Notes: generated by a model from the letters alone, not told the origin. Positions 25,471 through 46,160 are shown, numbered from the stretch's first letter. The stretch is 64,000 nucleotides of DNA from a virus (IMGVR_UViG_3300027759_003944); one strand, 5' to 3'. Numbers and translations: made by a program.

Positions 25471-26629
25471 TCAAGTCACCCGGGGTAGAATATATCCTGC
25501 ACTGGCTCGGCACCAGGCTGCGCCATACACTCAAGGCTGGCGTGAGTTTGGACAACATTGGCCCAACACTATACCCATACGACTGCAAGAATACTGTGAC
25601 CATCACGGTGTCAAACTAAACATCACGGATATTGATTCTGAGTGGCCAGCTGATGCATTTTACCCTGTGGGACTAGGCTTCTTTAATTTTGACATTGATT
25701 ACTTTGAACTAATGCCTGAGCGCATACGCACAGGTTTATTCTTTGGCGATGTGCGTGTGTTGTTTTACTATCATGAAGGCGATAACCCGTTCCGTATCAA
25801 AACTAGACTTGATGACCTATGTACCAAGCACAATTTGCGCGATGACTGCTATGTATTTGTGAGTTCTAATTCAGCGGCCAGTAGTATTCCACGTTTTGTT
25901 GCATTTCAAGACAGTGAACTTTGGTACTGGCAGCGCAATCATGAATCACCAGCATTGAACATACACCATGAACCTAGAGAGCGTGATTTTACTGTGTTGA
26001 ACAGACTGCACAAAAGCTGGCGTGCCTTGATCATGGCAGATTTAAAAAGTCTTGACATACTGAATAACTCATACTGGAGCTATTGCGAGCCAGGCGAATT
26101 TGCGGATTCGGACTGTCCAATAGAAATTGATGCCATTGCAGGTTTACGCACTGCTACTGAGGAGTTTTTGAAATCAGCACCTTATGTGAGTGATGAGTTG
26201 GACAATGATCAGCGAAACAATCACAGCACACTGGTTGCCAAGTATCATGTCAACAGCTATTGCAACATTGTGGTTGAAAGTCAATTTGATTACGATCAAA
26301 GTGGTGGCGTACTCTTAAGTGAAAAAACATTCAAACCTATCAAACATGGGCAACTGTTTTTTATTGCAGGTGCTGCTGGTAGTTTGCAAATGCTACGTGA
26401 CTTGGGATATCGTGTGTTTGATTCAGTATTGGACAACAGTTACGATTTAGAACCTGATCACACACAACGCTGGATGGCGCTGACAAGATCCATTTATTTT
26501 GCTCAACAGCAATTACCACAACTTTTTGAGCAGGCCAGAGCTGACATAGAACACAACCAGCAGTTATTTCAAGCCATAAAGACTGAACGTTTAAATAGCT
26601 TGATCAAGGACATCAATGAATCCCATTAA
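25448..26629 (+). CDS. GT10-like glycosyltransferase, paralogue 2
   Basis: IVVESQF...SEKTFKPIKHGQLFFIAG...GYRVFDSV; homologous to 24292 gene. Confidence 0.5.
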   Translation: MSLNLIADQVTRGRIYPALARHQAAPYTQGWREFGQHWPNTIPIRLQEYCDHHGVKLNITDIDSEWPADAFYPVGLGFFNFDIDYFELMPERIRTGLFFGDVRVLFYYHEGDNPFRIKTRLDDLCTKHNLRDDCYVFVSSNSAASSIPRFVAFQDSELWYWQRNHESPALNIHHEPRERDFTVLNRLHKSWRALIMADLKSLDILNNSYWSYCEPGEFADSDCPIEIDAIAGLRTATEEFLKSAPYVSDELDNDQRNNHSTLVAKYHVNSYCNIVVESQFDYDQSGGVLLSEKTFKPIKHGQLFFIAGAAGSLQMLRDLGYRVFDSVLDNSYDLEPDHTQRWMALTRSIYFAQQQLPQLFEQARADIEHNQQLFQAIKTERLNSLIKDINESH

Positions 26630-27656
26630 CTCTTACACCAGCTGGCAGCCACTTGAAGAAGTCATTGTGGGCCGTGCGTACACACCAGACTATTTTGACT
26701 TTATTGAAAATGCACAGGTACGCAATCAACTGCAACAAATACTGTCAGAGACCGAAGAAGACCTGGCCAACTTGCAAAAGACCATTGAGACTTATGGCGC
26801 TCGAGTGCGTAGACCTGACTTGCCCAACAAACATCACTTTCAACGTGATCAAATGAAAGGCAACGGCGCACCACTGCCGCCACTTACACCAAGAGACTGG
26901 CAGATCACACTGGGTGATCAACTGTTGCGTGTGCTGGCCATGCCAGAACTGGATGGTTTGTGTGCCGAGTATGAAGCAGCACAGCCCGGCAGTGTGATCA
27001 ACCCACATGGTCCCACCGGCTGGGACGAGAACTGTATTCTCAATCAAGCATCAGCATCATGCATTGTGCGTGTGGGCCGTGATGTATTTTTTGACAACTC
27101 TGACTTCCTGCGTCCAGGCCAAACTCGTTGGATTGTGGACAATGTATTAGGTCCAGAATATCGCATACACGAAGCCATAACAGATGGACATGGAGATGCT
27201 GTGTTTGCTATATTGAAGCCGGGGGTGTTGTTGTCAAGCAAACACGATGTAAACTTGAACTTGGCAGCAGACTTTCCGGGATGGGACGTTTGTAAAATTT
27301 GGGACAGCAGTATCTGGGCTGCCATGGAAGTAGGCAAGTTTAAATATGAACAATCACCAGGTGCTTGGTATGTACAAGGACAAACCCCCACACCCGAGTT
27401 CACAGACTTTGTTGACACTTATCTAACCAAGTGGACTGGCTTTGTTGCAGAAACTGTGTTTGATGTCAACTGCTTGGTGCTGGATGAGTCACACGTTATA
27501 TTCAGTGCTTACAATCGAGAAGTCTTTGACTATTGCCGTCGGCATCGGATAGAACCCATCATCAGTGAACTGCGTCACAGTTACTTCTGGGATGGTGGTA
27601 TCAGTTGTTGCACACAAGACATTCGACGTCGCGGCGGCCTGGAAACTTACCTTTAA
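26616..27656 (+). CDS. amidinotransferase-family protein (AGAT/StrB-like)
   Basis: C-terminal WDGGISCCTQDIRRRGGLETYL matches the amidinotransferase catalytic-Cys tail GGG(F)HC(V)T(L)D(V)RRG(T)L(Q)SY. Confidence 0.55.
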   Translation: MNPINSYTSWQPLEEVIVGRAYTPDYFDFIENAQVRNQLQQILSETEEDLANLQKTIETYGARVRRPDLPNKHHFQRDQMKGNGAPLPPLTPRDWQITLGDQLLRVLAMPELDGLCAEYEAAQPGSVINPHGPTGWDENCILNQASASCIVRVGRDVFFDNSDFLRPGQTRWIVDNVLGPEYRIHEAITDGHGDAVFAILKPGVLLSSKHDVNLNLAADFPGWDVCKIWDSSIWAAMEVGKFKYEQSPGAWYVQGQTPTPEFTDFVDTYLTKWTGFVAETVFDVNCLVLDESHVIFSAYNREVFDYCRRHRIEPIISELRHSYFWDGGISCCTQDIRRRGGLETYL

Positions 27657-29137
27657 CTGTAAACCGTTACACCATACAACATTTCAAATCTATCAGCGTC
27701 TGCACGGTCATTGACCATGGGCTCTCCACGTATGTTCAAACTGGTGTTGAGCAACATAGGACATCCTGTTTGGGCATACCATGCTTCCAACAATTGTCTT
27801 ATTCCCGACCCATCCGCCGCAACAGTTTGAACTCTACTGGTACCATCAACATGACATATAGCAGGGTAAAGATCAGGATTCCGGCAATGGGCAACTGACT
27901 GCATATAACTGTGAGTGTGCCAACCAGGCTGCATATCAAAGTAGTCATCAGCCATCTCAGCAAGAATGACTGGAGCAAAAGGTCTGAATTTTTGTCTGCG
28001 TTTGATTGCATTTACTTGATCCTTGATTTTTGCACCACGGGGGTCAGCAAGTAGGCTTCGGTTACCCAACGCCCTGGGCCCAAATTCAGCGCGACCATTA
28101 GCAACTCCAACAATACCATCGTGAAGTAAACCGCGGACAATATTGTCAACAGGATAAGCACCAGAGATATTGTGACCAAGGTAAGCATTGCGCCAATGCA
28201 GCCTTTTGCCATACGCAAGAGCAGCGGCTCCAAGACTTGACCCTGCGTCTCCTGGGCAGGGCATGATCCAGATGTTTTCAAAGTAATTTCCTAGTCGTCT
28301 ATTGGCCAAGCAGTTGAGTGCAACACCGCCTTGATACACAAGATTGGTGCTCCACTCAAAATCTCTAGCACGTTGCATAACATTGCCAATCAAGCGTTCC
28401 AGCAGGGTTTGAGCACTGGCGGCGATATCTTCATTGCTGAGACTGCCCATGAATTCATCATCAAACCCTGTGTGCAAGTTTTGTCCAAACTCTATTTCAT
28501 CTGGATCACGTATTAGCACTGCTTCCATCACATGATGATAACTGTCTCTGCCATAAGCAGCCATACCCATGGTGATGTATTCTTCGTCTAGTGGGTGTAG
28601 GCCCACACGCTGAGTAATTGCACTATAAAACAGGCCCAGGCTGTGCGGATACTTTTGTCCCCACAGTCGTCGGTATCTTGCTTGTCCTTGCTTGTCATAT
28701 TCTGCTCCCCAGATTGTGATTGTGTCCCACTCGCCTATGGCATCGATTACCACAACTGTGGCACGGTCAAATGGGCTGGTTTGAAAACCGCCAGCGGCAT
28801 GACTCAAATGATGGCTGTGACAACTGTAGGGCGTGTACGAAAACCATCCTCGCAGTTGTTGTTTTAAAATTTGGCCTGTGGTCAACTTGTTCCACTCTAT
28901 GCCTTGACCTGCATACCACTGGCGAAGTTGTTTTTTCCAGGGTGTTTCGTAGTAGGCCACATGATCTACGGCAAGATTTGCGTCACATGCGTCCCAGATT
29001 AGGCCAAGGTTGATGTCAGCATCATTCTTCTTCTTGCTGTAGCGTTCTGCATGTCCAGCAAATACAATGTCACCTCGTGAGTCAATCACTGTGGCTGCGG
29101 CGTCATGAAAGCCGGCACTGATTCCTAGGATATTCAT
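27653..29137 (-). CDS. carbamoyltransferase (NodU/CmcH family)
   Basis: N-terminal MNILGISAGFHDAAATVID... typical of NodU/CmcH O-carbamoyltransferases; 494 aa. Confidence 0.7.
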   Translation of the reverse strand: MNILGISAGFHDAAATVIDSRGDIVFAGHAERYSKKKNDADINLGLIWDACDANLAVDHVAYYETPWKKQLRQWYAGQGIEWNKLTTGQILKQQLRGWFSYTPYSCHSHHLSHAAGGFQTSPFDRATVVVIDAIGEWDTITIWGAEYDKQGQARYRRLWGQKYPHSLGLFYSAITQRVGLHPLDEEYITMGMAAYGRDSYHHVMEAVLIRDPDEIEFGQNLHTGFDDEFMGSLSNEDIAASAQTLLERLIGNVMQRARDFEWSTNLVYQGGVALNCLANRRLGNYFENIWIMPCPGDAGSSLGAAALAYGKRLHWRNAYLGHNISGAYPVDNIVRGLLHDGIVGVANGRAEFGPRALGNRSLLADPRGAKIKDQVNAIKRRQKFRPFAPVILAEMADDYFDMQPGWHTHSYMQSVAHCRNPDLYPAICHVDGTSRVQTVAADGSGIRQLLEAWYAQTGCPMLLNTSLNIRGEPMVNDRADADRFEMLYGVTVYS

Positions 29138-29231
29138 TTGTAGATAAATGGATCACGTTTGCGAAGTTCTTTTAATTTTTTACGATAACGTATTTCCAGC
29201 GTGATTCTATCCCAAAGTTGTCGTATCCATT

Positions 29232-30260
29232 TCATGTCAATCTCCTTATTTGCTGCTCAGCATAGTCTGCATCGCACCAGCGATACTCATATGTAGCCTC
29301 TGCCGTGCTGGTGCGTATTTTATATACATCAAGGTGTGGCGCCAGTCGATCCCAAATTTCTTTATAGTTGCGTGTGCCAAAACTTCGTTGCAAATCTACT
29401 TGTGCAACCTTGGGATGGCCGATAGTTAAACTTTGGTCCTCCGGATCAAATCCATTGGATACAAGCCATGTTCTAAACTCTGCCAACTTCTTTATTTGCC
29501 ATTCATGTGCGCCTGTTTCATTGCCCCATTCTATATCAAAATCTCCAGCAGCTTCTGTTTGTGATCTCAACCCGGTTGTGACTAATTTGTCAACATCTTG
29601 ATCTTCGTCAATGAAAACCTCCCAATGATGCTTGCCCACGGATTTGTTTACTCCCACATACACACCACCTAGATCTCGATTGATAGTTTCTACACCAAAC
29701 AGTTCATAATCTTTTGCATCCAATGCAAATCTTGGTGCATTGAGCCAGCACATGAGTTGACTGGGTCTACGCCATTCAGGTGCTTGTACCAGTTTGCGCA
29801 TGCTGAGTATGAGACTTTCGTATTCATGACACAGCAAATTAAGTTGCCGTATGTGCCAGCGAATTGTGGAATCAGCTCGATGATAATAATCACTTATACC
29901 ACCTGACCATCCTTGCAAATCTTCAAAATATCTGTGCAATTTATTCATATGGTCATGATTTATATCTAGGTTGCTTTGTATGGTATTGGCAGTATCAAAA
30001 TGGTCGTTGATGTGATAGCCTAGATCACTGTTGTTAATGGCCTCAATGCTATCATTTATGCATTTGCAAATGTATTCAGCCGTGCGTTGACTTTCTGTCC
30101 AACCTAGCCAGCAGTAATTTTTTTCCAAATGCAAGTTGTTGCGTATGATATCATTCAATGCTCCGAGCCATTTGCGACTGAGGCTATTATCATAAACATC
30201 AATATACAGTTTGTGTTCAGTATCTTTGCCACGTAGAGTTATTTCAATTTGATCAAGCAA
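29232..30260 (-). CDS. hypothetical protein (342 aa)
   Basis: ORF, head of the minus-strand rSAM operon. Confidence 0.5.
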   Translation of the reverse strand: MLDQIEITLRGKDTEHKLYIDVYDNSLSRKWLGALNDIIRNNLHLEKNYCWLGWTESQRTAEYICKCINDSIEAINNSDLGYHINDHFDTANTIQSNLDINHDHMNKLHRYFEDLQGWSGGISDYYHRADSTIRWHIRQLNLLCHEYESLILSMRKLVQAPEWRRPSQLMCWLNAPRFALDAKDYELFGVETINRDLGGVYVGVNKSVGKHHWEVFIDEDQDVDKLVTTGLRSQTEAAGDFDIEWGNETGAHEWQIKKLAEFRTWLVSNGFDPEDQSLTIGHPKVAQVDLQRSFGTRNYKEIWDRLAPHLDVYKIRTSTAEATYEYRWCDADYAEQQIRRLT

Positions 30261-31530
30261 TGTTGTTCCACCATTCTAGCACCGCAGGACGATCAGCAAG
30301 TATTTGTTCCATTGTAATCTTCTGTGTGCGTATACTTTCTAATTGTAACACACGAGCACGACCTTTTGCAATACCAGCCGCATATTGATCAGGCCATTGT
30401 TCTTCAAATGTGGGTCGTGTTTTTAACTGTGTCAGCATGTCACGCAACGCACCATCCGTTTCAGGCACAAGTTCATCAATCCAAGGTTCTAATAAATGTC
30501 TAGGCAAGGCCAATGGACTCATCACAATGTTAGGCGAGAATGAAAACATTACTTTAGCCAGGACTTCGACTCCATATTCTTGGGCAAGTTGTCTAATGCG
30601 TGTAACTTCGAACATTCCGGGCAGAGTGAGCGTAAAGTCAATTCGTACTTGACGTCGGTTACGTTGGATCGCAACTGCCGCACCAAAATTGTCAAGCCAT
30701 TGATCATAGTCAAGGCCTGTTCTAATGTACTCGCCAATTGCGCCTGTGCCGTCGAGACTTGCGCATATCTGCCAATCGCGCAGCCCGCTGAGAATATCGC
30801 GATATAAGTTAACACCTCGATAATCCACTCTGGATAAATTTGTATTGTATCTAGCATATACTCGTGGCCCGTCCCCTAATTCAACTATGCGGCGCATGTA
30901 ACGCCAATGTTGTTCGTACATCAAGGGTTCGCCACCTACCCAGTATACTTCTTCAACACGATGCTGTTCCACGGCTGCTGAAAACTCTGCTTCTATTTGG
31001 CTGTCTTGAAATGCTGTGATACTTGTTCTTACTTCTGGACGCATCCATGAGTTTTTTGGATTTGACCAGTCAACCATGTTCTGTTGCTTCTGCTCTGTTT
31101 CCCAACTACTACTCAGCATGTCACCGCACGTTCTACATTTGAAATTGCAAAGATTACTAAATCTATAATCCCAACTCACAGGCTGCATTGTGGTGCGTCC
31201 TGCGGTGTCAGTGGTTTCCCAAATGTCAGGGTACTTATGCTTGAACAATTGCCAAAAATATGTGCGGTAAACATCAGTGTTCAACAGTTTGTCATTGCAC
31301 ACTTCGCACTCGGGCAGTGTTTCTCCAGCCATCATGCGGCTGCGCACACTCATCATGTGTGGAGAATTCCAATGTTCATCCAGTGTGATGGGAATGTATT
31401 CACCAGTGCCTGCGGCGGTGTCTATGTACTGTTCAAAGTTCTGTGCAGGTTCACGTGATGCACAACACATACGTCGTTCTGTTTGTGGACTCAAGTAGGT
31501 ATGCACCCAAGGTGCCATGCACAAGCTCAT
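30253..31530 (-). CDS. radical SAM protein, paralogue A (N-terminal Cys-rich domain + CNFKCRTCG core)
   Basis: CxxxCxxC in MoaA/anSME-like context CN(F/L)xC(x)(Y/T)C; GGEPL, YNTN, GEYIRTG motifs shared with paralogues. Confidence 0.7.
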   Translation of the reverse strand: MSLCMAPWVHTYLSPQTERRMCCASREPAQNFEQYIDTAAGTGEYIPITLDEHWNSPHMMSVRSRMMAGETLPECEVCNDKLLNTDVYRTYFWQLFKHKYPDIWETTDTAGRTTMQPVSWDYRFSNLCNFKCRTCGDMLSSSWETEQKQQNMVDWSNPKNSWMRPEVRTSITAFQDSQIEAEFSAAVEQHRVEEVYWVGGEPLMYEQHWRYMRRIVELGDGPRVYARYNTNLSRVDYRGVNLYRDILSGLRDWQICASLDGTGAIGEYIRTGLDYDQWLDNFGAAVAIQRNRRQVRIDFTLTLPGMFEVTRIRQLAQEYGVEVLAKVMFSFSPNIVMSPLALPRHLLEPWIDELVPETDGALRDMLTQLKTRPTFEEQWPDQYAAGIAKGRARVLQLESIRTQKITMEQILADRPAVLEWWNNIA

Positions 31531-32738
31531 GGATAGTGAATTAAATCAGCAAACTCAGGTGCTACATCATGCATGTTTTGATTGCGTTTGCGATCTAGGT
31601 CTGCAATCTTCATACGCAACATAAACCCATCTGTTGACGCACCTGTATTCATAAAGTCCGTAATACGGTCAAACTCCACACGATACTGTGGTGGTACATC
31701 TGCTGTGCGCAAGTGTTCTGTTATGGCTGCTTTGGCTGTGTCTGGCAAGGTGGCAATACTGAAATACCAAGCGTCATGCATCATGTTCCAATAAACAAAA
31801 TTAAAACTTTCTTTATTTTGATCAATCCACCAAGCCACTTGATCTAGGTAACGCACATTGAATACATTCACTGTGGTACAAATTTGAAGCACTATGTTTT
31901 TATGGCATTCTTTGAGATCTCTGAAAAGATCCAAATTTGCACAGACTTCCGGCCAGTTGGCATTGGTTCGTTGATATTCAAATCTCTTACCAATGTCATC
32001 GATGCTGAATGCAATCTCCACAGTTTTAAAATGGCGCCAAATTGCTTCACCACGTTCTGGCCATTGTGTGCCATTGGTGTTGTAGTGTATTTCTACTTGA
32101 TGTGCAATACCACGATCCACAATACCCTGCAACATGTCAAAGTGTTCGTCAATCATGAACGGCTCGCCACCTGTGAATTCAATATAACGAATGTCTGTCA
32201 GCACACTGTCAATCTGCTGCCAAAACTGCGTGTTCTCTCTGGGCCATGCACCAGCACGTAGCATTTGATATGCATGACTGCTTTTCTGTTCTTCGCGTGG
32301 TAACTGATTGATTTCTTCTGTGGCAAACTGACTTGAACTCCATGAACCACATATACGGCATTTCAAGTTGCAGATATTACCCAGCTTCAAGTCCAAAAAC
32401 ATCAAGGATTTGGCATCTGTTGTCCACTCTGTATCGCTAATGCTGTGCTTGAGCCTGTCTAGCGTGTGCATGCGTTTGCTGGTACGCCCGCCACGTTCTT
32501 CATTCCAACACTTGCGACAAGTTTGTGGACGTTCACCAGCAAGAAACTGTTCACGTAGTCGGCGCATGTGGTCACTGTTTTGTATGTCAGCAAAGTTGGC
32601 AGTGCTTAACTCAAACTTGTTGCCAGCATCATCCAAGATTTCATCATCTGCAAGACAACAAGGACGTACTGTACCGATTGGACTTGCTTCTATACTGACC
32701 CAAGGCAACACGCAGAATTTGTCGTGTGGTATGTTCAT
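31527..32738 (-). CDS. radical SAM protein, paralogue B
   Basis: N-terminal C-x17-CC...GERPQTCRKCW then CNLKCRICGSWSSSQF; TGGEPF. Confidence 0.7.
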   Translation of the reverse strand: MNIPHDKFCVLPWVSIEASPIGTVRPCCLADDEILDDAGNKFELSTANFADIQNSDHMRRLREQFLAGERPQTCRKCWNEERGGRTSKRMHTLDRLKHSISDTEWTTDAKSLMFLDLKLGNICNLKCRICGSWSSSQFATEEINQLPREEQKSSHAYQMLRAGAWPRENTQFWQQIDSVLTDIRYIEFTGGEPFMIDEHFDMLQGIVDRGIAHQVEIHYNTNGTQWPERGEAIWRHFKTVEIAFSIDDIGKRFEYQRTNANWPEVCANLDLFRDLKECHKNIVLQICTTVNVFNVRYLDQVAWWIDQNKESFNFVYWNMMHDAWYFSIATLPDTAKAAITEHLRTADVPPQYRVEFDRITDFMNTGASTDGFMLRMKIADLDRKRNQNMHDVAPEFADLIHYP

Positions 32739-33994
32739 TGTACTATGGGCCTTCCTATATTCTTAAAAATTTCTATCAATTTGTTGTACTCCGGATGCTC
32801 ACGATCGTACACATTGTGTTGCTTGAATTCTTCCATGGACCAAGTCCCCCAGTTCCACATCTTTTGAAAATTTATTTTTTTTATACCAAATGAATTGGCC
32901 AATTCAACAAACATTGGAATTTCTTGATAATTTTGTTGCTGTACTACAAAATCTGCCACAAGCTCAACCTTGAGTTGATTTTCTTGAACATAATCACACA
33001 GCCATTGCACATTCTCTAATAGTGTGTTCCAGTGTCCGCCAACACGAATTTTTGAATATGTTTCTGCTGTGGCTGCATCAAAACTGATTCTCAACATGCT
33101 CAAATTAGGCAAAATATCTATTAGCAAATCTCTTTTTTTCAAAAGGTAGCTGCCATTAGTTGACATTGAGTGAGTGATGTTTGATTTTTTAGTGCGTGTA
33201 ATATATTTAAGTAAGTTTAAATAAGGCTCAGAAATAAAAATTTCTCCGCCAGCCCAACATATAAGCACTGGTTGATCTTCGATCTTGTCAATAATTTTTG
33301 TTTTAATGTTTTCAACAATTTGATTGTTGATAGTACGGATTACATGATGTTTATTGTTGTTGATCACTTGCGTTCTACAACTGGGGCACTGAAGATTACA
33401 TGTGTAGTCAAAATCAAACGTTATTGTTCTGGGAATTTGATGCACCTGATATTCTGGCTTGGATTCAAATGCCAAGGGCGCTAAATCACTGTCAACTGCA
33501 GACGTAAAATTATACTTTGATGTCGCAACATTGGCAAAGAACGAACAAATTTTGTTGTTGCAGTAGTAGTATCGTCCGTGGTAAATTTCTTGTCTTATTT
33601 TTTGTGCTGTTTCACTGTTGAGTATTTGCCATACATCATCTGCTTCAACAATATTGCCCACAAACTTGGGCACGAAACTAGGACTTGTGCAAATATATGC
33701 ATTTCCGCCAGCATTGATACCCAGGAAGTTCCAGGGAATCCTACAACCGTTTGGTTTGTAATTCTTGTTGTGAAATTGATGTTGCTGTCGGTGTGCATTC
33801 GAATCTGCTAGTGTGTCTAAATCCACATTCAACGCCTGATAGTTTTCTATCATCATTTGTATGAATTGATCAATCTCTTGCTGTATGCTTGGATCTGTAG
33901 CATCAGCGCCTGCGACAAAATCTTCGTAGCTGGGCCAACTGTTGCCCGCAAAAGTTTTGTATTCTTTCCTACCAACAAATTGATTTCTATTCAC
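32735..33994 (-). CDS. radical SAM protein, divergent AT-rich member (CNLQCPSCRT at residue about 195)
   Basis: CxxxCxxC, AGGEIFISEPY; different N-terminal architecture and composition. Confidence 0.6.
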   Translation of the reverse strand: MNRNQFVGRKEYKTFAGNSWPSYEDFVAGADATDPSIQQEIDQFIQMMIENYQALNVDLDTLADSNAHRQQHQFHNKNYKPNGCRIPWNFLGINAGGNAYICTSPSFVPKFVGNIVEADDVWQILNSETAQKIRQEIYHGRYYYCNNKICSFFANVATSKYNFTSAVDSDLAPLAFESKPEYQVHQIPRTITFDFDYTCNLQCPSCRTQVINNNKHHVIRTINNQIVENIKTKIIDKIEDQPVLICWAGGEIFISEPYLNLLKYITRTKKSNITHSMSTNGSYLLKKRDLLIDILPNLSMLRISFDAATAETYSKIRVGGHWNTLLENVQWLCDYVQENQLKVELVADFVVQQQNYQEIPMFVELANSFGIKKINFQKMWNWGTWSMEEFKQHNVYDREHPEYNKLIEIFKNIGRPIVQ

Positions 33995-35253
33995 AACAGC
34001 GCCACTAACTCAGGAATTGCATCTTGCCAGAACTCTTTTCGTATGTTGTCTAACTCATGAGTCTTGCGCCAAAATGTATCTATTAGATGTGTGTTGTCTG
34101 TGGCCATCATGAACTTGACGGCACTTTCAAATCCTTGCGTGGCACGGCCCAGCGAATCTTGGTCACGCAACCAAAGAATATGGTCAAGATACTTTGTGGC
34201 CAGGCGTTGCTTGTACTCTGCAGGTGCCATGTCTATTCTATAGTGCAGTGGATCTTGTAGTATGTTCACATTTAGATCCTGCGCACGTATGAATCCACGT
34301 TCAGTCCAATCACGATGAAAATCTGGTAGGTGCCATGCATTCATTATGCTGAGTGTGGGGCTGATGTAAAAATCCACTTCTGGACAAACTTTTAGCATTT
34401 CTTGTCTATTATTTTCTACCACTGTCCAGTCTGTGCCCTTGCGAATATATTCTCCACGTGTGCCAGAATCATCTAAACTTGCACCCACTGCCACACTATC
34501 AAACTGCTTCCAGTATTCAAATACACTGTTGCCTTTGAGATCAGTGTGTGTAAAATTTGTGTTGTAGATCAATCGCACATCAAATCTTTTTCTACGCACT
34601 AGCTCATCTAAAATTCTATAATGCTCTTCCATCAGCAGCGGTTCTCCACCAGCAAAGTAAATTTGCTCTACATAATCCAGGTGTGGCTCTAGTTGTTCCC
34701 ACATGTCCAGTTCAGTGCGTCCTGCATAATTCAACACGGTGTTCTGTTCTTTCCAGTTGCCCCCAGCCAGCTTGGCTTGATCCTGATACCATTGGCTGCT
34801 GAATATGTGTCCGCAACTACGGCATTTCAAATTGCATAAATTGCTGAATCGAATGTCCCAATAAGTCATTTCAAAAGGATTGTCATCTAACTTTTTGATC
34901 TGATGTCCGTGATGTTTGTTTGCACTCTTGCGCCCACTAAAGAAACCGTTGGTTTCTTGTTCATAACAACGACCACAGGTGGCATTTGACGTTTCTGTCA
35001 ACATATCCTCACGCAGTTGTTGCATGGGTTTGTCAGTCCATATTTCTTCTAGCGTGTTGCTACGGCAATTTCCAACTTGACCCACGCCCATTTCGGCATG
35101 GCAACAAGGATATGCTTCGCCTGTAGGATAGGCATGCAGATGTATCCAAGGATATATGCAAAATGTTTTTGATTCTGTTAATAAAAATTGCTCACGTGCA
35201 GTTAGTTCAGTAGACCGTACCAGGTCAGTGCTGTTATACTTGTATTGAGTCAT
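33991..35253 (-). CDS. radical SAM protein, paralogue C
   Basis: CNLKCRSCGHIFSSQW; FAGGEPLL; GEYIRKGTDW; N-terminal PCC and CGRCYEQE cysteines. Confidence 0.7.
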   Translation of the reverse strand: MTQYKYNSTDLVRSTELTAREQFLLTESKTFCIYPWIHLHAYPTGEAYPCCHAEMGVGQVGNCRSNTLEEIWTDKPMQQLREDMLTETSNATCGRCYEQETNGFFSGRKSANKHHGHQIKKLDDNPFEMTYWDIRFSNLCNLKCRSCGHIFSSQWYQDQAKLAGGNWKEQNTVLNYAGRTELDMWEQLEPHLDYVEQIYFAGGEPLLMEEHYRILDELVRRKRFDVRLIYNTNFTHTDLKGNSVFEYWKQFDSVAVGASLDDSGTRGEYIRKGTDWTVVENNRQEMLKVCPEVDFYISPTLSIMNAWHLPDFHRDWTERGFIRAQDLNVNILQDPLHYRIDMAPAEYKQRLATKYLDHILWLRDQDSLGRATQGFESAVKFMMATDNTHLIDTFWRKTHELDNIRKEFWQDAIPELVALL

Positions 35254-36577
35254 ACCATTCTACTAGGTTAGGAAATGTAACAGCAAAGTTTTTGTCTCTG
35301 CGTTGATCATATTGTGTGTAAAACTGTTTGAAGTCATTCAATAACTTGGGCATTTCAAATGCTTCGCTGTGCGGAGTTTTGACCACGTCCAGATAATCAA
35401 TCAAGCGTTGTACATGATTGATTTCGTGTTCGTGCAGACAGGGATTTTGACGATTGTGAAACAACCAAGATTCCAACTGCAACCGATAGCGATTGCGCAT
35501 GTGGTCAGGTAATACCAATGCACTTTGAAAGCTGGGAAAACGCAGGATATTCAAAGTAAAATTTACTTGATCACGGCCATAACGTTGTTTTAAATTCAAC
35601 ATCATGTTGAGGTGATCTACAATACTGTCCAAGCACAAGGCATTGATGGTACACATCACGTGTACAGCACCAACAAATCGACCTTGCAACAAAAACAACA
35701 CATTGTTGAGCCATTGATCATAGTCCAGGCCATCACGAATGTATTCTGCTTGCGCGAATGTGGCTTCCATTGAAGTGTACAGATCCACCCTGGGCAACGT
35801 GGCAACTGCCACAGCAAAGTCTTTCATCTTTTCCATGTCAATGCCAAGATTTGAATTGATGGCCAAACTTGTTGTGCTACGCCCTTGATTGGTCTTGAAC
35901 CACTCGATTAGCTGCCAGGTGTATCCTGACATCAAGGGTTCACCGCCAGTTATTCGGAGTTCTTGCAAGGTGCGGTGGAGGTCTCGTTCCCACCAGTCAA
36001 AGAAGGCTTCCACGTACGGATTAGTTTCACCGAATTTATAAAGTTGACTACTATCATGAGTGTGAGTAAAATGGTTCCTGCCATCGCTAACCAACCCGTT
36101 GTAGGGTCCATGCTTGCGTATATCATTGACCCAAGTGGAACTAAAAGCAGGATTACAATAAGAGCAAGCAAACTGACAAGTGCGATCGAAACTGATTTCG
36201 AGAGTTCTAAGATTGACATCATCTTGGATGGGAGTTTTAACAGCTTCATTCAAGGCCTCTATGGGATAAATTTTACTTTTGTACACACGGTCACTCACAG
36301 CGTCAGTGTGCATGTCTTCGATCTTCCAGCAGTATTCACAACCTGCAGGACGTTCACCTGCCAGCATTTTACGCCGGTCTTCTTTCTTTTGATCAGAATT
36401 GTGCAGCAGCCTAGAGTTGAGCCGGACTTTATCAGCGTCCACCAAATGGGCTGGCGGGTGATGGCAACTTGTTGTCTGCCCACTTCCTAACCAAATGGTA
36501 GCATTGTACCATTTTGCCGCACAAAAACTTGCGGATACAGGATCTAATACCTGTTGCTTAAATTCTAAATCTGTCAT
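35234..36577 (-). CDS. radical SAM protein, paralogue D
   Basis: CQFACSYCNPAFSSTW; ITGGEPLM; AEYIRDGLDYDQW; N-terminal SCHHPPAH and GERPAGCEYCW. Confidence 0.7.
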   Translation of the reverse strand: MTDLEFKQQVLDPVSASFCAAKWYNATIWLGSGQTTSCHHPPAHLVDADKVRLNSRLLHNSDQKKEDRRKMLAGERPAGCEYCWKIEDMHTDAVSDRVYKSKIYPIEALNEAVKTPIQDDVNLRTLEISFDRTCQFACSYCNPAFSSTWVNDIRKHGPYNGLVSDGRNHFTHTHDSSQLYKFGETNPYVEAFFDWWERDLHRTLQELRITGGEPLMSGYTWQLIEWFKTNQGRSTTSLAINSNLGIDMEKMKDFAVAVATLPRVDLYTSMEATFAQAEYIRDGLDYDQWLNNVLFLLQGRFVGAVHVMCTINALCLDSIVDHLNMMLNLKQRYGRDQVNFTLNILRFPSFQSALVLPDHMRNRYRLQLESWLFHNRQNPCLHEHEINHVQRLIDYLDVVKTPHSEAFEMPKLLNDFKQFYTQYDQRRDKNFAVTFPNLVEWYDSIQV

Positions 36578-37679
36578 TGATATATTGGGTTAACCGTTCA
36601 GGGAGTTCTGCACGTTCACGACGATTGTGTTCGCGGAGATGTTGATAATTGTATTTACAAATGTCTTCAGCAGCCTCCAAGAAACTGGCAGCACCATTAT
36701 AACATATATCTGCCACAACATCAACCATTCTGTCAGCACGAGATTTGGGGTCATCTATTAAATCAAAACGTTCGTCAATCAAATGACTGAATGTGTGGAA
36801 TCCTGCATCACGCAAATCTCTGTAGTATCCTGGATTGGCCGCTACAACAAATGGATGCCGCATGATCATGGGCTTCCAAATCTTTTCTGTGCGGAAAGTG
36901 TAGGGGTAATCGTATACTGTTTCAGTCACCACACTGAAGTAAGTGTCAATATAGGCAACAGGATTAATTTCAGCATCGCCCCAGGTGTTGCCAAACAAGT
37001 GGTGTTTGACAAATCCTGTGGGCAGGTTATCCATATTGGGCAGCGCACGATCAATTTCGTATTGTTTGGGCAACAGTCTCACCGGCTCTGAATCACCAGT
37101 GGTCAACTTACTGGTCCAGGCCATTTCCACACGGTCATTGAGATTGGTCCACAGAGCACGTTCCAGTAACTCTCGCTCACGCATGGCATCTATCAGATAC
37201 TTGCGATGCGGTCGCAGTCGGCCATTCAAAAACAAAAAATCATATGGCTTGTTGTCTTTGTGATACACCTGCGTATAAGATTCATGCGCATGTAAGTTTT
37301 CCAAGTACTCAACAATGTTGGAAAAGTAGCAGTCGGTTTTGCAATAATTCCAGCCTGGTTCTATGTTGCCCGATGTTAGTAATCCAATTCGACCGTCTCG
37401 CACATGTTCCTCCAGCATGAGTCGTTTCAACTGCAACAACATGGTTTGACTGCCTTCTGCTGGATTGGAGAATATGATGTGTCCTGGGTGTCGAGTTGCC
37501 CAGTCAGTAATAGAATACCAATTTTCTTTTAGTACGACTCGGCCCACAATATAAACAGCCACCGGATCCGGTTGGTCAGGCCACTGCCAAAAGCTGCCAT
37601 CAGCATAGGGTTTCAGCAGGTCCCAGACTTCGGCCCATTCATCCACAATAATTTTATGCTTGCCGAGCATGATATGCAC
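36558..37679 (-). CDS. GT10-like glycosyltransferase, paralogue 3
   Basis: YFSVVTETVYDYPYTFRTEKIWKPMIMRHPFVVAANPG...GFHTFSHL. Confidence 0.5.
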   Translation of the reverse strand: MHIMLGKHKIIVDEWAEVWDLLKPYADGSFWQWPDQPDPVAVYIVGRVVLKENWYSITDWATRHPGHIIFSNPAEGSQTMLLQLKRLMLEEHVRDGRIGLLTSGNIEPGWNYCKTDCYFSNIVEYLENLHAHESYTQVYHKDNKPYDFLFLNGRLRPHRKYLIDAMRERELLERALWTNLNDRVEMAWTSKLTTGDSEPVRLLPKQYEIDRALPNMDNLPTGFVKHHLFGNTWGDAEINPVAYIDTYFSVVTETVYDYPYTFRTEKIWKPMIMRHPFVVAANPGYYRDLRDAGFHTFSHLIDERFDLIDDPKSRADRMVDVVADICYNGAASFLEAAEDICKYNYQHLREHNRRERAELPERLTQYINDRFRI

Positions 37680-39060
37680 ACTCCTCCCACCATGATCGCA
37701 TCTCAGGGAATGTTTTCACGAAGTCTGTGCCGCGGCGACGGTCATGTTCACTGAAAAAACGATAGAAGTCTGCTCGGGCACGTGAGTGATCTGTCAACTG
37801 TGCTGATTGCATCCAGGCAATGTCACGATCCAGTCTGTGCAATTCATAGTCTTTGAATCCTTTGAATGGTGCGTCTTCAGTTTCGATCTGTCGCACCATC
37901 CAGGCCCACAACAGTTCCAGTTTGTCTACATAACTCTCAGGCAGGATCTGTAGACTCTGCCATGCAGGCTCACGCAACACAGGTGTGTCAAACCACACAC
38001 GTTGATATGCGTTGCTGTATACTTTGCGCAGGCCCAGGATGCCAGCAAACAACTTGTCCAGACTGGTCACACTCAAGTTGTTCATTGTGACAATAAATGT
38101 AAGACTTGAATAATTGGGTACTTCTGTAAGGAATTGGTTTACTCGATCCCATAACAGGTCAAAGTCCAAACCGTCACGCATGTATTCTGCTTGGGCTCCC
38201 CAACCATCTAAACTCACATACTGCATGAAGTGTTCAATGCGCCCGTCACAGATGCGTTTTACATAGTCTAAGTATTTCTGCCATGACTTTTCATCTACTG
38301 AGAAGTTACTTGTGACATTCAAATGCAGTTTAGGACTGGGGTTGGCCAACACATAATCAAACACACGATAGGTATTTTTGTCCAGCAACGGCTCACCACC
38401 AGTCATTCTAAAATGTTCTAGGTGAGGGTACAGGTCTGGCCACCAAGACCAGAAGGCGTCAACATAAGGGTTTGATTCTCTAACGGGAATAGGACCACGA
38501 CTGCCAGCAAAATGCTCAGGAGCATTATGAGGCACCAGGGTAGGATATGCTCCCAGTCTAGCAACTTCATCTGCCCATGAACTACTAAACTGAGGGCTGC
38601 AATAACTACACCGCAGATTGCAAGCGTGATTAAAATTAACTTCAACATAACTTGGAATGACATTTTCCGCTCCTGTGCTATTTTTTATTGATTCAAAATC
38701 TACGGCTGCCCAAGGCTCACCCGAACGATAGTGTCGGTCACTCAACTTGCCTTCGTTCTCCATGTTCCAGCAGTAAGAGCATTCTGTAGGCCGCTCTCCT
38801 GCCAACATCATCCGACGCTGTGCTTTTTTATGAGCAGTATTGTGCAATGCCGAAACATCTATTGTAATCTCTGCAGGATTGATAGCATGCAGCGGAGGAT
38901 GATAACATGAGTTGTTCATGCCTGTGGTCAGGTGTAGACTAACTTGTTTCCATTTGGCCAGGCAAAGTGCAGGACCCAGTTGTTGTTTCATTTGTTCAGC
39001 AGAATTTAAGAACTTGCTCTTGGTGTCTATTGACTCATCGCCTTTGTTCATTTTGGCCAT
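37654..39060 (-). CDS. radical SAM protein, paralogue E
   Basis: CNLRCSYCSPQFSSSW (MoaA-like); MTGGEPLL; AEYMRDGLDFD; N-terminal SCYHPPLH and GERPTECSYCW. Confidence 0.7.
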   Translation of the reverse strand: MAKMNKGDESIDTKSKFLNSAEQMKQQLGPALCLAKWKQVSLHLTTGMNNSCYHPPLHAINPAEITIDVSALHNTAHKKAQRRMMLAGERPTECSYCWNMENEGKLSDRHYRSGEPWAAVDFESIKNSTGAENVIPSYVEVNFNHACNLRCSYCSPQFSSSWADEVARLGAYPTLVPHNAPEHFAGSRGPIPVRESNPYVDAFWSWWPDLYPHLEHFRMTGGEPLLDKNTYRVFDYVLANPSPKLHLNVTSNFSVDEKSWQKYLDYVKRICDGRIEHFMQYVSLDGWGAQAEYMRDGLDFDLLWDRVNQFLTEVPNYSSLTFIVTMNNLSVTSLDKLFAGILGLRKVYSNAYQRVWFDTPVLREPAWQSLQILPESYVDKLELLWAWMVRQIETEDAPFKGFKDYELHRLDRDIAWMQSAQLTDHSRARADFYRFFSEHDRRRGTDFVKTFPEMRSWWEECAYHARQA

Positions 39061-40124
39061 GTTGATCTATCATAATATTTTTCAGTTTGCAAAGTGAACT
39101 GTTTGAATAATGGCTGCAATTCATATATCAAACGTCGATTGTGTTCTAGATCTTTTTGACACTTTTCCAATATAGTATTTGCAGAACCGTTACGAATCAG
39201 TGTATCAAGTATGTCAAACACATGATCCACTCGGTGTACCCCAGCATCATTATCATAATCCAAGCCAAAAACGTTTTCATAAAATCTAAAACCAACCAAT
39301 TTTTTACATATTTGATCTATCAGATCAGCATCCATGAATTCTTTCAGCGGTGTCCATACTTCTCTTATGATGTCCATCTCTTTAGCTCTTTTTATAGAAT
39401 TTCGTCCAGCAATTAACATAAAAGGACGTCCATACAAAATTGGACGTATAAATTTTTCAGATATGGTATAACAGTCTTCAGCAGTGGATGTTTCAAACAC
39501 TAATTCTACAGCAATCTGTCGATAAACCGTTTCCCAATCAGTATCCATTGTGCCAACAATTGGCGGTTTAAATGTTTTACCAATATCGCTGTAGGGACGG
39601 ATTTCTAATACTTCGCTAAATCTATCGTTGGTTTGGCACAGGTACTCAAGTAATTCTGGAGTATCAATTTGCTCTTTCAAGTCGTGATGAAAACTTGTGA
39701 GTCCAAGATCTTTAAATTCAAAATTTTTATGCCTTACTGCTCCTCTAATTCTTTCTGCTGTGGCGCGGCCTAAAAACATGCCGTACACCTTGCTGCCGTT
39801 CCAAACAGGTGGTTCAATATTGTGCTGCCATGCAGACAAAGGTTCCGTTGACCAAAAAGTATTAAAAATTATTTGTACAGTATAAAGGTTGTGCTTTTCA
39901 AGAAAATTTGGAGTTATAACAGTTATCTTGGTTGGATCCCAGTTCCAGACTGCACAAAGTTCATCCAGTAACTGGAACAATCCGGAATGCCTACCAGACC
40001 GGCATTCTTTGGAAAACAGCTCAACACTGCCGTGTTGTTGCATGCTTTGAATAATTCGTGAAGCCAGTTCAACGGGATGAAATATTTCACTGTCGCCCCA
40101 GTACCGTTGTATATCAATTACCAT
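39048..40124 (-). CDS. GT10-like glycosyltransferase, paralogue 4 (AT-rich)
   Basis: VFETSTAEDCYTISEKFIRPILYGRPFMLIAG. Confidence 0.45.
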   Translation of the reverse strand: MVIDIQRYWGDSEIFHPVELASRIIQSMQQHGSVELFSKECRSGRHSGLFQLLDELCAVWNWDPTKITVITPNFLEKHNLYTVQIIFNTFWSTEPLSAWQHNIEPPVWNGSKVYGMFLGRATAERIRGAVRHKNFEFKDLGLTSFHHDLKEQIDTPELLEYLCQTNDRFSEVLEIRPYSDIGKTFKPPIVGTMDTDWETVYRQIAVELVFETSTAEDCYTISEKFIRPILYGRPFMLIAGRNSIKRAKEMDIIREVWTPLKEFMDADLIDQICKKLVGFRFYENVFGLDYDNDAGVHRVDHVFDILDTLIRNGSANTILEKCQKDLEHNRRLIYELQPLFKQFTLQTEKYYDRSTWPK

Positions 40125-40803
40125 GGGAAAAAACAGCCTTTTGTTTTAAATCTACATAGCAATCTTTGCCGTTGCGTTCTGGCCAATCCTGTGGCCTTGC
40201 ATCCATCAACAAAATTCCGCGAGCTGCGTCTTCGGGGGTCATGTACATGTGCCAACCCATTGTTTGAATATTGTCATTCACATAAGCGGTGTGCGAATTT
40301 CTTCCATCGTACCGAGCCAGTTTCAACCACTTGGCACATTCCGCATTGTCAGTTAGAATTATACCACCACGGCCAATGGGTATGGCTTTTTTTATTTGAA
40401 AACTAACCACTCTCAATCCGCCGCTGTACATGCCTCGGTGCCATTGAATAGCTGCGTCCCATAGCGGATATGGTTTGAGTTGATAACACCCTATCCAGTC
40501 TTGATCGGTAAATTCAACCTGACAGCCGGCATGTTGGATATACATTGGCACACTGGCATAGGTATGCGAAGGTATAGTGATGGTACCTTGTGCATTCAAA
40601 TACTTCAAACTCAAAAACAAACCATGACTGCAACAATCTACTGCTACTGCATAAGGTGCACCAGCAAACTCAGCCACCTTGTTTTCAAATATTTCTACCA
40701 CTTCTCTAGGGTCATCAAAACTGTAACCTTTGTCTTGCAACATACGCAACTCAGGACGCTGTAGTTCTGAGGGCAAGGTATCCAGTGGCCATATGTTATA
40801 CAT
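40114..40803 (-). CDS. DegT-family PLP-dependent aminotransferase (short form)
   Basis: FENKVAEFAGAPYAVAVDCCSHGLFLSL...IPSHTYASVP; SFQIKKAIPIGRGGIIL lysine region; start placed at ATG 40803 (8-nt overlap with upstream stop) rather than 40851. Confidence 0.6.
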   Translation of the reverse strand: MYNIWPLDTLPSELQRPELRMLQDKGYSFDDPREVVEIFENKVAEFAGAPYAVAVDCCSHGLFLSLKYLNAQGTITIPSHTYASVPMYIQHAGCQVEFTDQDWIGCYQLKPYPLWDAAIQWHRGMYSGGLRVVSFQIKKAIPIGRGGIILTDNAECAKWLKLARYDGRNSHTAYVNDNIQTMGWHMYMTPEDAARGILLMDARPQDWPERNGKDCYVDLKQKAVFSHGN

Positions 40804-41443
40804 GTTTAAATTCCTTGATTTCTCCCACGTACCGGGCTGGGCTTCCCACATACCGGCCAGGACGCTCTAGGTTTTTTGTAACTGTGCTGACTGCACCAAC
40901 TTCAATACCATCACACAGTGTCAGTGCATTGAGCGCACTGCTGCGAAAATTGAATACCGAATCATTGCCTACTTGAGTGCGTCCTGCAATCATTGTGCCT
41001 GAATGTAATTGCACATTGTTACCTAGTTTACTGTAATGAGCTATCAAGCAATAAGTTTCTACAATGCAATGGTCGCCAATTTGACTTCCAAGTAAAATTG
41101 TACTAAATGGAGACACAAAGCTGCCACGACCAACCACAGCAGATACATCAGGATTGTAGCACACCACAGTGTCATGCACGTATCTTATACAATCTAGATT
41201 CTGCCGATCAACCATGTCTATTATGTGTTTTCTTAACTCTTGGTCAAGCGTAAAGGCAACCCCGTACTGGAATTGATCTTTGTTGTCTAGATCAACAAAT
41301 TGTTCGGGTTCTAAAATAAACACCTGCCCTGAATGTTCTTGAGACATAAAATGATAGGCTTCCTGAGTCAATGTGCTCGGGGCATACCCTATGAGACAGA
41401 TTGGTTTTTGATTAGCTATTAACATTTTTAATCCAAGGTTCAA
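40796..41443 (-). CDS. hexapeptide-repeat sugar N-acetyltransferase (NeuD/PglD-like)
   Basis: N-terminal Rossmann-like ICLIGY then left-handed beta-helix repeats (GSFVSPFSTILLGSQIGDHCIVETYCLIAHYSKLGNNVQLHSGTMIAG). Confidence 0.65.
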   Translation of the reverse strand: MNLGLKMLIANQKPICLIGYAPSTLTQEAYHFMSQEHSGQVFILEPEQFVDLDNKDQFQYGVAFTLDQELRKHIIDMVDRQNLDCIRYVHDTVVCYNPDVSAVVGRGSFVSPFSTILLGSQIGDHCIVETYCLIAHYSKLGNNVQLHSGTMIAGRTQVGNDSVFNFRSSALNALTLCDGIEVGAVSTVTKNLERPGRYVGSPARYVGEIKEFKHV

Positions 41444-42026
41444 ACATGTCCACGGTGTTTTCCCAAGATGTCAATTCAAGACTCTTGTATCTTACACTCA
41501 CACACCATCGTGAACGGGTACGTGTTTCAACATTGTGCGGTATGCCGGTGCGCACAAGCGTGGGGGTAGTACCTATAATTTTTCTCGTACTCTCATACGG
41601 TGCAATTTGGTCTAATGGCCAGTCTCTGTATAAAGTACCGGCAGGTGTCAACGAATCCACAGGTGGAATTGGTGGGATATCATACCAAATCATTTCGCTG
41701 TCGTCTAGCGAGTCCATGGTCCAATTGATTGCAGAGACAGCAGGTTCGCCGGACCCTGTCAGGATATCAACATGTACAGCAGGATGCAAATAATTGGGTG
41801 TACGATAAAATATCAACGCAGTTCGCACAGGAATTCCTATACTGTGCATGTATTCTATCCAATCAGCCGACAATAATTGGTCAACTGTTTGGTGTCCAAA
41901 ATGCCAAATACCCGCTGGAAGTTCAGCATATATGCTGTTGCGTAACAAATCATCAAGCACAACGTCTTTGCGGACTGCTTCTGCCACATCAATGGTCAAC
42001 TCCTGCCATGGTTGTTGATAATTCAT
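41412..42026 (-). CDS. hypothetical protein, possible 2OG-Fe(II) oxygenase/cupin (HxD...H...RxS)
   Basis: PAVHVD...GIPHNVETRTRSRWCVSVR. Confidence 0.3.
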   Translation of the reverse strand: MNYQQPWQELTIDVAEAVRKDVVLDDLLRNSIYAELPAGIWHFGHQTVDQLLSADWIEYMHSIGIPVRTALIFYRTPNYLHPAVHVDILTGSGEPAVSAINWTMDSLDDSEMIWYDIPPIPPVDSLTPAGTLYRDWPLDQIAPYESTRKIIGTTPTLVRTGIPHNVETRTRSRWCVSVRYKSLELTSWENTVDMFEPWIKNVNS

Positions 42027-45125: not shown

Positions 45126-45156
45126 ACCTTATTGTACAGGAGATTTAGATAAAAGT

Positions 45157-45178
45157 AAAGGGGCTGGTGCCCCTTTTG
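45157..45178 (-). terminator. rho-independent terminator (hairpin functional on both strands)
   Basis: AAAGGGGCTGGTGCCCCTTTTGG; lies 3' of the minus-strand fibre gene. Confidence 0.6.
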
Positions 45179-45179
45179 G

Positions 45180-46148: not shown

Positions 46149-46160
46149 TTAGTTTGTTCC

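Follow-up and report, generated by a model that had tools for sequence, protein, structure and literature searches.

A jumbo-phage array of radical SAM genes with an N-terminal twitch domain and a possible role in glycan tailoring

What does a phage do with six radical S-adenosylmethionine (SAM) enzymes encoded in one locus? The question is raised by a 64,000-nucleotide stretch of the viral genome IMGVR_UViG_3300027759_003944 (hereafter the window, to whose full length all coordinates refer), which contains six open reading frames (ORFs) for radical SAM proteins, here named R1–R6, all on the minus strand. A first-pass annotation of this DNA described six radical SAM paralogues with a Cys-rich N-terminal domain, and the ORFs, the CX3CX2C motif and the GGE motif that it relied on are all confirmed. 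Here we place these proteins in a family, identify their N-terminal domain from its sequence, trace the locus through related viruses and bacteria, and consider whether the enzymes might tailor the sugars of a phage glycan.

Five family members and a divergent relative

The genes are R1 (30253..31530; 425 amino acids (aa)), R2 (31527..32738; 403 aa), R3 (32735..33994; 419 aa), R4 (33991..35253; 420 aa), R5 (35234..36577; 447 aa) and R6 (37654..39060; 468 aa), and a hidden Markov model of the family, run over the whole window, matched these six and no others. They had been called six in tandem, but an unrelated gene of 373 aa (36558-37679) interrupts the array between R5 and R6. R1, R2, R4, R5 and R6 encode N-terminal-twitch radical SAM proteins, with R1, R2, R4 and R6 as core members of the array, R6 of a SCYHPP subtype and R5 of a SCHHPP subtype that is the most widely conserved type. 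R3, a radical SAM protein with a SPASM/twitch-like domain at its N terminus, is divergent and accessory, and its gene occupies a variable slot.

In a six-way MAFFT alignment, the three cysteines of CX3CX2C, the GGE motif and the core N/S/R positions were invariant, as were three N-terminal cysteines, with a fourth nearly so. CX3CX2C together with GGE, the criterion for the radical SAM superfamily, is present in all six proteins and is also invariant in 74 relatives. Against the NCBIfam model NF033640 ("N_Twi_rSAM, twitch domain-containing radical SAM protein"), for which the cut-off is 170 bits, R1, R2, R4, R5 and R6 scored 268, 340, 387, 286 and 315 bits over their full length (E-values of 1e-80 to 1e-116), R4 being the best match of the six. 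R3 reached 83 bits (2e-23), which is under the cut-off, and is not a member by that criterion. The Pfam model PF04055 matched R1–R6 with E-values of 1e-7 to 0.05, and its gathering score was passed by R2 (residues 119-283) and R3 (198-336) only. The longer motif strings given in the first-pass annotation are approximately right, but in their exact form they fail in three proteins: R5 has CQFACSYCN, R2 has SSSQF and GGEPF, and R3 has GGEIF and MSTN. On sequence, R1, R2 and R4–R6 are new members of the already catalogued family NF033640 and R3 is a related outlier; the sixth gene had been singled out as divergent and AT-rich, and its GC content is indeed 37.1%, versus 44.6% for the window.

A profile built from the six proteins matched 32,333 cluster representatives (50% identity) at E ≤ 1e-3 and 5,374 at E ≤ 1e-30, including proteins with two or three fused copies, and a Pseudobdellovibrionaceae homologue bears the NF033640 product name from the PGAP pipeline. 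NF033640 is thus very large, with at least 5,374 clusters at the stricter threshold, and literature searches for an N-terminal twitch and for the NCBI product name found no functional study and no characterised member. Searches of the literature combining radical SAM, carbamoyltransferase and phage likewise found no functional study.

An auxiliary-cluster domain at the N terminus

The N-terminal Cys domain reported in the first-pass annotation is present, but what it is had been missed. Four Cys positions in it (R4 C32, C50/51, C93 and C96) are conserved at 96% or more in 74 family members. When a profile of this domain was compared with the PDB, it matched BtrN residues 166-242 with an E-value of 1.5e-8, the next match being PqqE at 0.56, and all four BtrN-equivalent Cys positions align with the profile. 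The Pfam SPASM model matches the N-terminal domain only, in R2 (9-78), R3 (84-146) and R4, which supports the earlier remark that C-terminal SPASM cysteines are absent. By definition, SPASM and twitch domains extend the radical SAM core at its C terminus (PMC9012708). In R1–R6, the twitch domain lies instead at residues ~4-110, or ~84-150 in R3, upstream of CX3CX2C, and this permuted architecture is the source of the NF033640 name. We therefore identify the N-terminal Cys domain, from these alignments, as a BtrN-like twitch (half-SPASM) domain relocated to the N terminus, and we predict that it binds a cluster. The Cys-rich N terminus and the lack of a C-terminal SPASM domain are then one fact, because the auxiliary-cluster domain has moved.

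An AlphaFold2 (AF2) model of R4 (predicted local distance difference test (pLDDT) 68; predicted template modelling score 0.71) shows a beta-hairpin followed by helices in the N-terminal domain. Against the PDB, the family profile matched viperin best (E 1.2e-7), followed by TigE, YydG, MoaA, BlsE and anSME. These matches confirm the fold and put the family, at the sequence level, in the SPASM/twitch–viperin–MoaA neighbourhood, in agreement with the MoaA/anSME/BtrN placement proposed earlier; they do not by themselves identify a substrate.

Closer assignments were considered and rejected. Membership of the viperin/pVip family is contradicted by the NF038283 scores, which were at best 54.7 bits (R3) and at most 35 for the others, against a cut-off of 180. 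PADLOC gave pVip matches of 18-54 bits over partial profiles, and a role as a defence system was dismissed because the similarity to pVip is weak and generic. R1–R6 are not BtrN orthologues, as only the twitch domain aligns and 2-deoxy-scyllo-inosose (DOI) synthase was not recognised in the window. Nor are they SPASM-type enzymes such as anSME, PqqE and AlbA, which have a seven-Cys motif: the conserved cysteines outside CX3CX2C number four, all N-terminal, and no C-terminal SPASM match was found.

A conserved core with variable slots

An identical R4 is present on a JGI metagenome contig, and homologues with 75-92% identity occur on hundreds of contigs, among them IMG/VR genomes of 342-356 kb. 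By this relatedness, the source of the window is an uncultured jumbo phage with related genomes of ~342-356 kb. Proteins of the lineage recur in very many metagenome assemblies, and a megablast search of the region against the INPHARED phages gave no match.

Across 80 viral loci, the gene order is X322–slot–R6–X373–R5–R4–slot–R2–slot–R1–X342–carbamoyltransferase–amidinotransferase–X393–X392. The variable slots of the window hold R3, X358, a DegT homologue of 245 aa, an acyltransferase and X204, and in other strains different, distant N_Twi paralogues occupy them. Nearly every related viral locus has an R1 orthologue, at 71-93% identity, and R2 is conserved throughout the clade; a counterpart in the R3 slot, 47-53% identical, was found in 5 of the 80. 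Copy numbers were counted in the 63 loci that span both anchors: 47 have five radical SAM genes, 13 have six and three have seven, and between none and five X-family genes lie between the anchors. Because five-copy loci predominate and R3 sits in a variable slot, the window represents a "core five plus one" variant.

These comparisons alter two parts of the initial picture. The array had been taken for an expanded family, but its members share only 19-26% pairwise identity and are for that reason old paralogues rather than recent duplicates. Five of them form the conserved core of the clade, with R3 alone in a variable slot, and each paralogue has its own orthologues elsewhere; we therefore rejected recent local amplification. 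The array had also been judged highly unusual for a phage, a view that does not survive the finding of five to seven copies in 63 related contigs, of eight to at least ten elsewhere, and of arrays in Bdellovibrionota.

Genes that accompany the array

The array lies within a block of 15 co-directional genes (27653-42995) that abut or overlap (0-56 bp) and leave no intergenic gap. Their order is X322–X204–hexapeptide acyltransferase–DegT–X358–R6–X373–R5–R4–R3–R2–R1–X342–33-aa ORF–carbamoyltransferase. Because all 15 genes overlap or abut, the block has no space for a precursor-peptide gene. A single small ORF fits in among the array genes, the 33-aa ORF (29134..29235, minus strand; MKWIRQLWDRITLEIRYRKKLKELRKRDPFIYK), which is highly basic, is called a gene in the JGI record and exactly fills the gap between X342 and the carbamoyltransferase gene with 4-bp overlaps; it is not convincing as a precursor peptide.

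Several genes in and around the block resemble enzymes of sugar modification. The last gene of the block encodes a NodU/CmcH/TobZ-type carbamoyltransferase (27653..29137, minus; Carbam_trans_N E 1e-36, Carbam_trans_C E 6e-48). Convergent with it is a clade-conserved gene for an amidinotransferase of the AGAT/StrB1/SxtG family (26616..27656, plus); phmmer against the PDB matched this protein to AGAT (1.4e-15), StrB1 (7e-11) and SxtG (4e-10), and the alignments take in the C-terminal Cys region. In variable slots lie genes for a short homologue of DegT/DnrJ/EryC1-type pyridoxal phosphate (PLP) sugar aminotransferases (40114..40851, minus; 245 aa; PF01041 E 1.4e-15), which is accessory, and a hexapeptide-repeat acyl- or acetyltransferase (40796..41443, minus; 215 aa; PF00132 E 2.5e-11). 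A second sugar-nucleotide set at 19351-22092 comprises an epimerase/dehydratase, another DegT homologue and a family 25 glycosyltransferase (GT25). Adjoining this set is a gene for a DUF6071-like protein (18761-19477, plus), whose N terminus, LITGGCSFSE, is by eye reminiscent of SGNH/GDSL hydrolases and which had no informative PDB match. DUF6071-like genes stand directly beside N_Twi genes in the loci L084, L086, L101, L107 and L108 (marine relatives, RsoM2USA and other phages).

Four mutually paralogous proteins, which share the motif V-x-E-T ... (T/S)EK-x-(F/W)-(K/R)-P ... PF, constitute the X family. They are X373 (36558..37679, minus; 373 aa), which separates R5 from R6; X358 (39048..40124, minus), an AT-rich (GC 37.7%) relative of X392 that occupies the slot upstream of R6 and occurs in few related loci; and X392 and X393 (24292-25470 and 25448-26629, plus), which are convergent with the block. 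The family had no Pfam match even at an E-value of 10 and no PDB sequence match. An AF2 model of X392, of low confidence (pLDDT 54), resembles GT-B glycosyltransferases, and phage L108 has a fusion of an X-family domain with a UDP-glucose/GDP-mannose dehydrogenase, next to three N_Twi genes. This fusion supports a link between the X family and nucleotide sugars, and we tentatively regard the family, X373 included, as probable GT-B-fold glycosyltransferases.

X322 (42027..42995, minus) is the conserved anchor directly upstream of the array and is kept in nearly all related loci. It has SYDEP and DGDN motifs and sub-threshold profile matches to GT2_3 (E 0.13) and to the flagellin glycosyltransferase GmaR (E 0.084), weak evidence that makes a GT-A-like enzyme possible. 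Homologues occur in L107 (444 bits), in L108 and as RsoM2USA_350 (240 bits). X322 is the most conserved gene adjoining the arrays, and a weak paralogue of 734 aa, X734, is encoded at 22089-24293 (minus). Two other proteins of the block gave little from searches: X342 (29232..30260, minus), which lies between R1 and the carbamoyltransferase and is 41-75% identical within the clade, had no Pfam match and no informative PDB match, and X204 (41412..42026, minus; 204 aa), a variable-slot protein found only in a window-like subset of loci, had no match in the family libraries.

Upstream of the block, a giant fibre-like ORF (48772..63972, minus) encodes 5066 aa rich in Thr, Val, Gly and Ser, with 0.3% Cys. 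Between it and X322 (43272-48600, minus) lie X202, X600, X322b, X283 and X255, named from the giant side. The giant gene thus heads a conserved block of giant, small genes, X322 and radical SAM array. Further from the array, the window encodes an AAA ATPase that is 53% identical to a protein of PA5oct-type jumbo Pseudomonas phages, with a DUF2201/VWA metallopeptidase-like partner (9933-11024 and 11761-13086, plus); ThyX (17220-17900, plus); and a class IV aminotransferase beside an alpha/beta hydrolase (3029-4775, minus).

Occurrence in other phages and in bacteria

The arrangement extends to a cultured phage. Ralstonia phage RsoM2USA (344 kb) has a giant gene (2540 aa) followed, after other genes, by X283, X255, X322 and an R6-type radical SAM gene. 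Elsewhere its genome carries an orthologue of R5 (51% identity), followed by a DUF6071-like gene and, two genes later (~1.8 kb), by a carbamoyltransferase orthologue. It has two N_Twi copies, and all of these module genes are annotated as hypothetical. An R6-type orthologue comes after the X322 homologue in each of RsoM2USA, L107 and L108. In locus L107, a giant of 4244 aa comes with the same set of small genes, with seven or eight radical SAM genes and with DUF6071 and a carbamoyltransferase; on another contig, a 6340-aa giant is followed by small genes alike in size and order (only sizes were compared), and these by at least ten consecutive radical SAM genes. This gene order is headed by homologous giants of 2540, 4244, 4246 and 6340 aa in RsoM2USA, in L107 and on two further contigs. 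By gene content and order, the module of giant gene, small genes, X322 and radical SAM array is older and wider than the clade of the window.

The sample for co-occurrence comprised about 20 independent loci. In other phages, N_Twi genes stand beside genes for UDP-glucose dehydrogenase, B12-type radical SAM protein, dTDP-sugar isomerase, epimerase, methyltransferase and tail-fibre-like proteins, and the link between carbamoyltransferase and N_Twi radical SAM genes was also found in RsoM2USA, L097, L103, L110 and L107. Domain fusions join N_Twi proteins to a family 2 glycosyltransferase (GT2; protein P0175), to TPR and to Sel1. In Vibrio phage K566, four weak N_Twi-like matches (23-57 bits) lie close together and a fifth ~10 kb away; a viral scan with a K566 radical SAM gene returned no loci and one with the GT2 fusion P0175 returned a single locus. 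The window itself encodes a seventh radical SAM protein, of another class, at 7003-8457 (plus), with an N-terminal B12-binding-like domain and a core with CVRQCRFC (Pfam Radical_SAM 57 bits, B12-binding 28 bits, and a weak match to TsrM); homologues lie inside the radical SAM arrays of the phages L102 (6400-8607) and L108 (16550-18784).

Bacterial arrays were found on Bdellovibrionota contigs of up to 1.7 Mb, in tandem arrays of two to five, with R5 42-49% identical in metagenome-assembled genomes (MAGs). GTDB was scanned with patterns biased towards R5, R6 and R2, and the search itself may account for part of the predominance of Bdellovibrionota. On a 1.74-Mb contig, a five-gene array adjoins two GT2 genes. 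In the Pseudobdellovibrionaceae loci L103 and L110, the order is DUF5989–carbamoyltransferase–two to three N_Twi genes. In full, the chromosomal order there is cysteine desulfurase–TusA–99-aa ORF–DUF5989–carbamoyltransferase–N_Twi, between lon/patatin and the nuo operon. A tblastn search with R5 against plasmids gave no match. The whole phage block, beginning with the fibre-associated genes and ending with the carbamoyltransferase gene, also occurs on contigs binned into bacterial MAGs: L083 and L096 ('Haliscomenobacter sp. EUL_031', 183 kb and 148 kb) and L084 and L086 (marine TMED MAGs). These four are probably phage contigs that reflect mis-binning or hint at a host.

A possible function in glycan tailoring

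We propose, with about an even chance of being right, that R1–R6 oxidise or tailor sugars by BtrN-like radical chemistry, within a phage glycan pathway that can be diversified. The observations are family membership, cofactor motifs, twitch homology, fold, operon, synteny and recurrent partners, and from them we infer a sugar substrate. SAM would bind at the CX3CX2C [4Fe-4S] cluster and give rise to a 5'-deoxyadenosyl radical, which would abstract a carbinol hydrogen from a sugar, either a nucleotide sugar or a residue on the growing glycan. The second electron would pass to the four-Cys twitch cluster, as proposed for BtrN, leaving a keto-sugar; alternatively, re-reduction or elimination could yield an epimer or a deoxy-sugar. 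Neighbouring enzymes might then transaminate, N-acylate, amidinate or O-carbamoylate the keto or hydroxyl group, and glycosyltransferases would attach the next residue and extend the chain. The paralogues would be specific for a position or a residue, and exchange of radical SAM, glycosyltransferase-like, aminotransferase and acyltransferase genes in the slots would diversify the product between strains. As the array adjoins fibre genes, the likely product is a glycan carried by the virion (fibre) or by the surface of the infected cell.

Of the two functions guessed at in the first-pass annotation, BtrN-type sugar chemistry is favoured by this context, and modification of the giant and fibre proteins becomes a rival. 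In the window, the sugar proposal draws on the carbamoyltransferase, DegT, hexapeptide transferase, epimerase/dehydratase, GT25 and amidinotransferase genes. Elsewhere it draws on the GT2 fusion, the GT2 pair beside the five-gene array, the UDP-glucose dehydrogenase–X fusion and the dTDP-sugar genes, and the association with carbamoyltransferase recurs in four further lineages. Several observations weigh against it. Beyond family membership, all of this is guilt by association. The R4 model is of moderate confidence, with pLDDT below 50 in the region of the cluster loop and in some stretches of the N-terminal domain, and the glycosyltransferase call for the X family comes from a poor model without sequence-level support. 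The closest cores by sequence, those of viperin and MoaA, act on nucleotides. Several bacterial arrays have no recognisable sugar genes, among them L087 (beside integrase and type IV secretion system genes) and L090 (flanked by folD and gcvT), and the TPR and Sel1 repeats to which some members are fused are usually protein-binding. The deep, tight linkage to the giant fibre-like gene fits protein modification equally well.

Many SPASM/twitch enzymes modify peptides that are made on the ribosome and modified after translation (RiPPs) and sulfatases. R1–R6 could accordingly be maturases that cross-link, epimerise or C-methylate the giant fibre-like protein or other virion proteins, which we consider unlikely. 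The recurrence in divergent phages of a giant gene (2540, 4244, 4246, 5066 or 6340 aa), about 6–10 small genes and then the array speaks for such a role, as do the repeat fusions and the bacterial arrays that lack sugar genes. But a precursor-peptide gene cannot fit into the gap-free operon, whose sole small ORF is basic and without a Cys/Ser/Thr core, and leader-recognition, protease and exporter genes were not found by Pfam or NCBIfam, so we rejected a RiPP-maturase system as such, although a protein substrate encoded at a distance or in trans is conceivable. The low Cys content of the giant protein is contrary to thioethers, the twitch domain is specifically like that of BtrN and not like those of RiPP maturases, and genes for sugar enzymes lie among those of the array, with fusions of such enzymes to family members.

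The same enzymes would also suit a free small molecule resembling an aminoglycoside, aminocyclitol or nucleoside antibiotic. Its logic is mirrored in the BtrN-type twitch domain, DegT, the StrB1/SxtG-type amidinotransferase, the TobZ/NodU-type carbamoyltransferase and BlsE as the best fold match, and a cyanophage trio of DegT-like, radical SAM and amidinotransferase genes has been described as "antibiotic synthesis genes" (PMC12801897). We think this distinctly improbable: a cyclitol synthase, a resistance gene and an exporter were not recognised in the window, the location among fibre and host-recognition genes and the interleaved glycosyltransferase-like paralogues are more typical of glycoconjugate assembly, and the variation of the slots between strains resembles O-antigen-like diversification. 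A role in modifying nucleotides, or in hypermodifying phage DNA to evade defence, in the manner of viperin and MoaA, is very unlikely and the least probable of these readings. Viperin is the best PDB match of the family profile and MoaA is also matched, PADLOC and the NCBIfam model viperin_w_prok give weak pVip matches, and ThyX is encoded in the window. TobZ-type carbamoyltransferases share the Kae1/YrdC architecture with t6A enzymes, which can be counted on the same side. The viperin scores, however, reach no more than 55 bits of the required 180 and reflect the generic core only; in every phage examined the array is tied to fibre-like genes and not to genes of replication or nucleotide metabolism; and the chromosomal arrays of Bdellovibrionota have no DNA-modification partners.

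A broader reading, doubtful in its entirety, would make the array the heart of a lineage-wide jumbo-phage module (giant gene, small genes, X322, one to at least ten radical SAM genes and carbamoyltransferase) that hypermodifies virion or fibre sugars or the fibre protein, with slot cassettes conferring strain-specific surface chemistry and with enzymes of these types exchanged with predatory Bdellovibrionota. If so, it would be the first radical SAM-driven system for diversifying the virion surface and would supply a first function for NF033640. Sugar tailoring by R1–R6, if true, would add a new set of radical carbohydrate-tailoring catalysts and a means for large phages to make unusual glycans and to vary them, with relevance to host recognition, superinfection exclusion and evasion of grazers or immunity. 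As far as the searchable literature shows, neither the conserved phage module nor its association with a carbamoyltransferase and with probable glycosyltransferases has been described before. RsoM2USA, with its two N_Twi genes, X322, carbamoyltransferase and giant gene, is a cultured, minimal version that makes the module testable.

Comparison with known systems

BtrN, the 2-deoxy-scyllo-inosamine dehydrogenase of butirosin biosynthesis (PDB 4M7S/4M7T), is the only solved structure whose auxiliary domain matches the N-terminal domain of R1–R6. It is a carbohydrate (aminocyclitol) dehydrogenase in which a four-Cys auxiliary [4Fe-4S] cluster is the proposed electron acceptor in a two-electron oxidation, and its product is transaminated on the way to 2-deoxystreptamine (PMC9012708); this PLP aminotransferase partner may be compared with DegT in the window. 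The differences are equally clear. The twitch domain of BtrN is C-terminal, whereas that of R1–R6 is N-terminal; BtrN has ~250 aa, against 400-470 aa and an extra helical C-terminal region in R1–R6; its core is not especially close, being absent from their top core matches; and its pathway includes a 2-deoxy-scyllo-inosose synthase, for which no counterpart was recognised in the window. Viperin lacks the auxiliary cluster that is predicted for R1–R6, and the twitch domain of MoaA is C-terminal with three Cys ligands, where theirs is N-terminal with four conserved Cys positions. BlsE and anSME, top fold matches, are 15-19% identical to R1–R6 and carry their auxiliary domains at the C terminus, and the two auxiliary clusters of anSME are bound through a seven-Cys SPASM motif that is absent from R1–R6.

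Among viruses, the nearest likeness is to pelagimyophages and T4-like marine viruses, in which multi-copy radical SAM genes lie by giant or tail-fibre genes together with glycosyltransferases and vary among close relatives (PMC7029224, PMC5332604). Radical SAM cassettes accompany glycosyltransferases in the host-recognition cluster of pelagimyophages (PMC7029224), and one T4-like marine viral genome has 12 radical SAM genes (PMC5332604). No function is assigned to the phage radical SAM genes in these two reports or in that on the cyanophage trio (PMC12801897), and as no family is given for those of the pelagimyophages and T4-like viruses either, the likeness to them is one of description. The phage considered here differs from them in being a jumbo phage of ~350 kb with a cultured relative, RsoM2USA.

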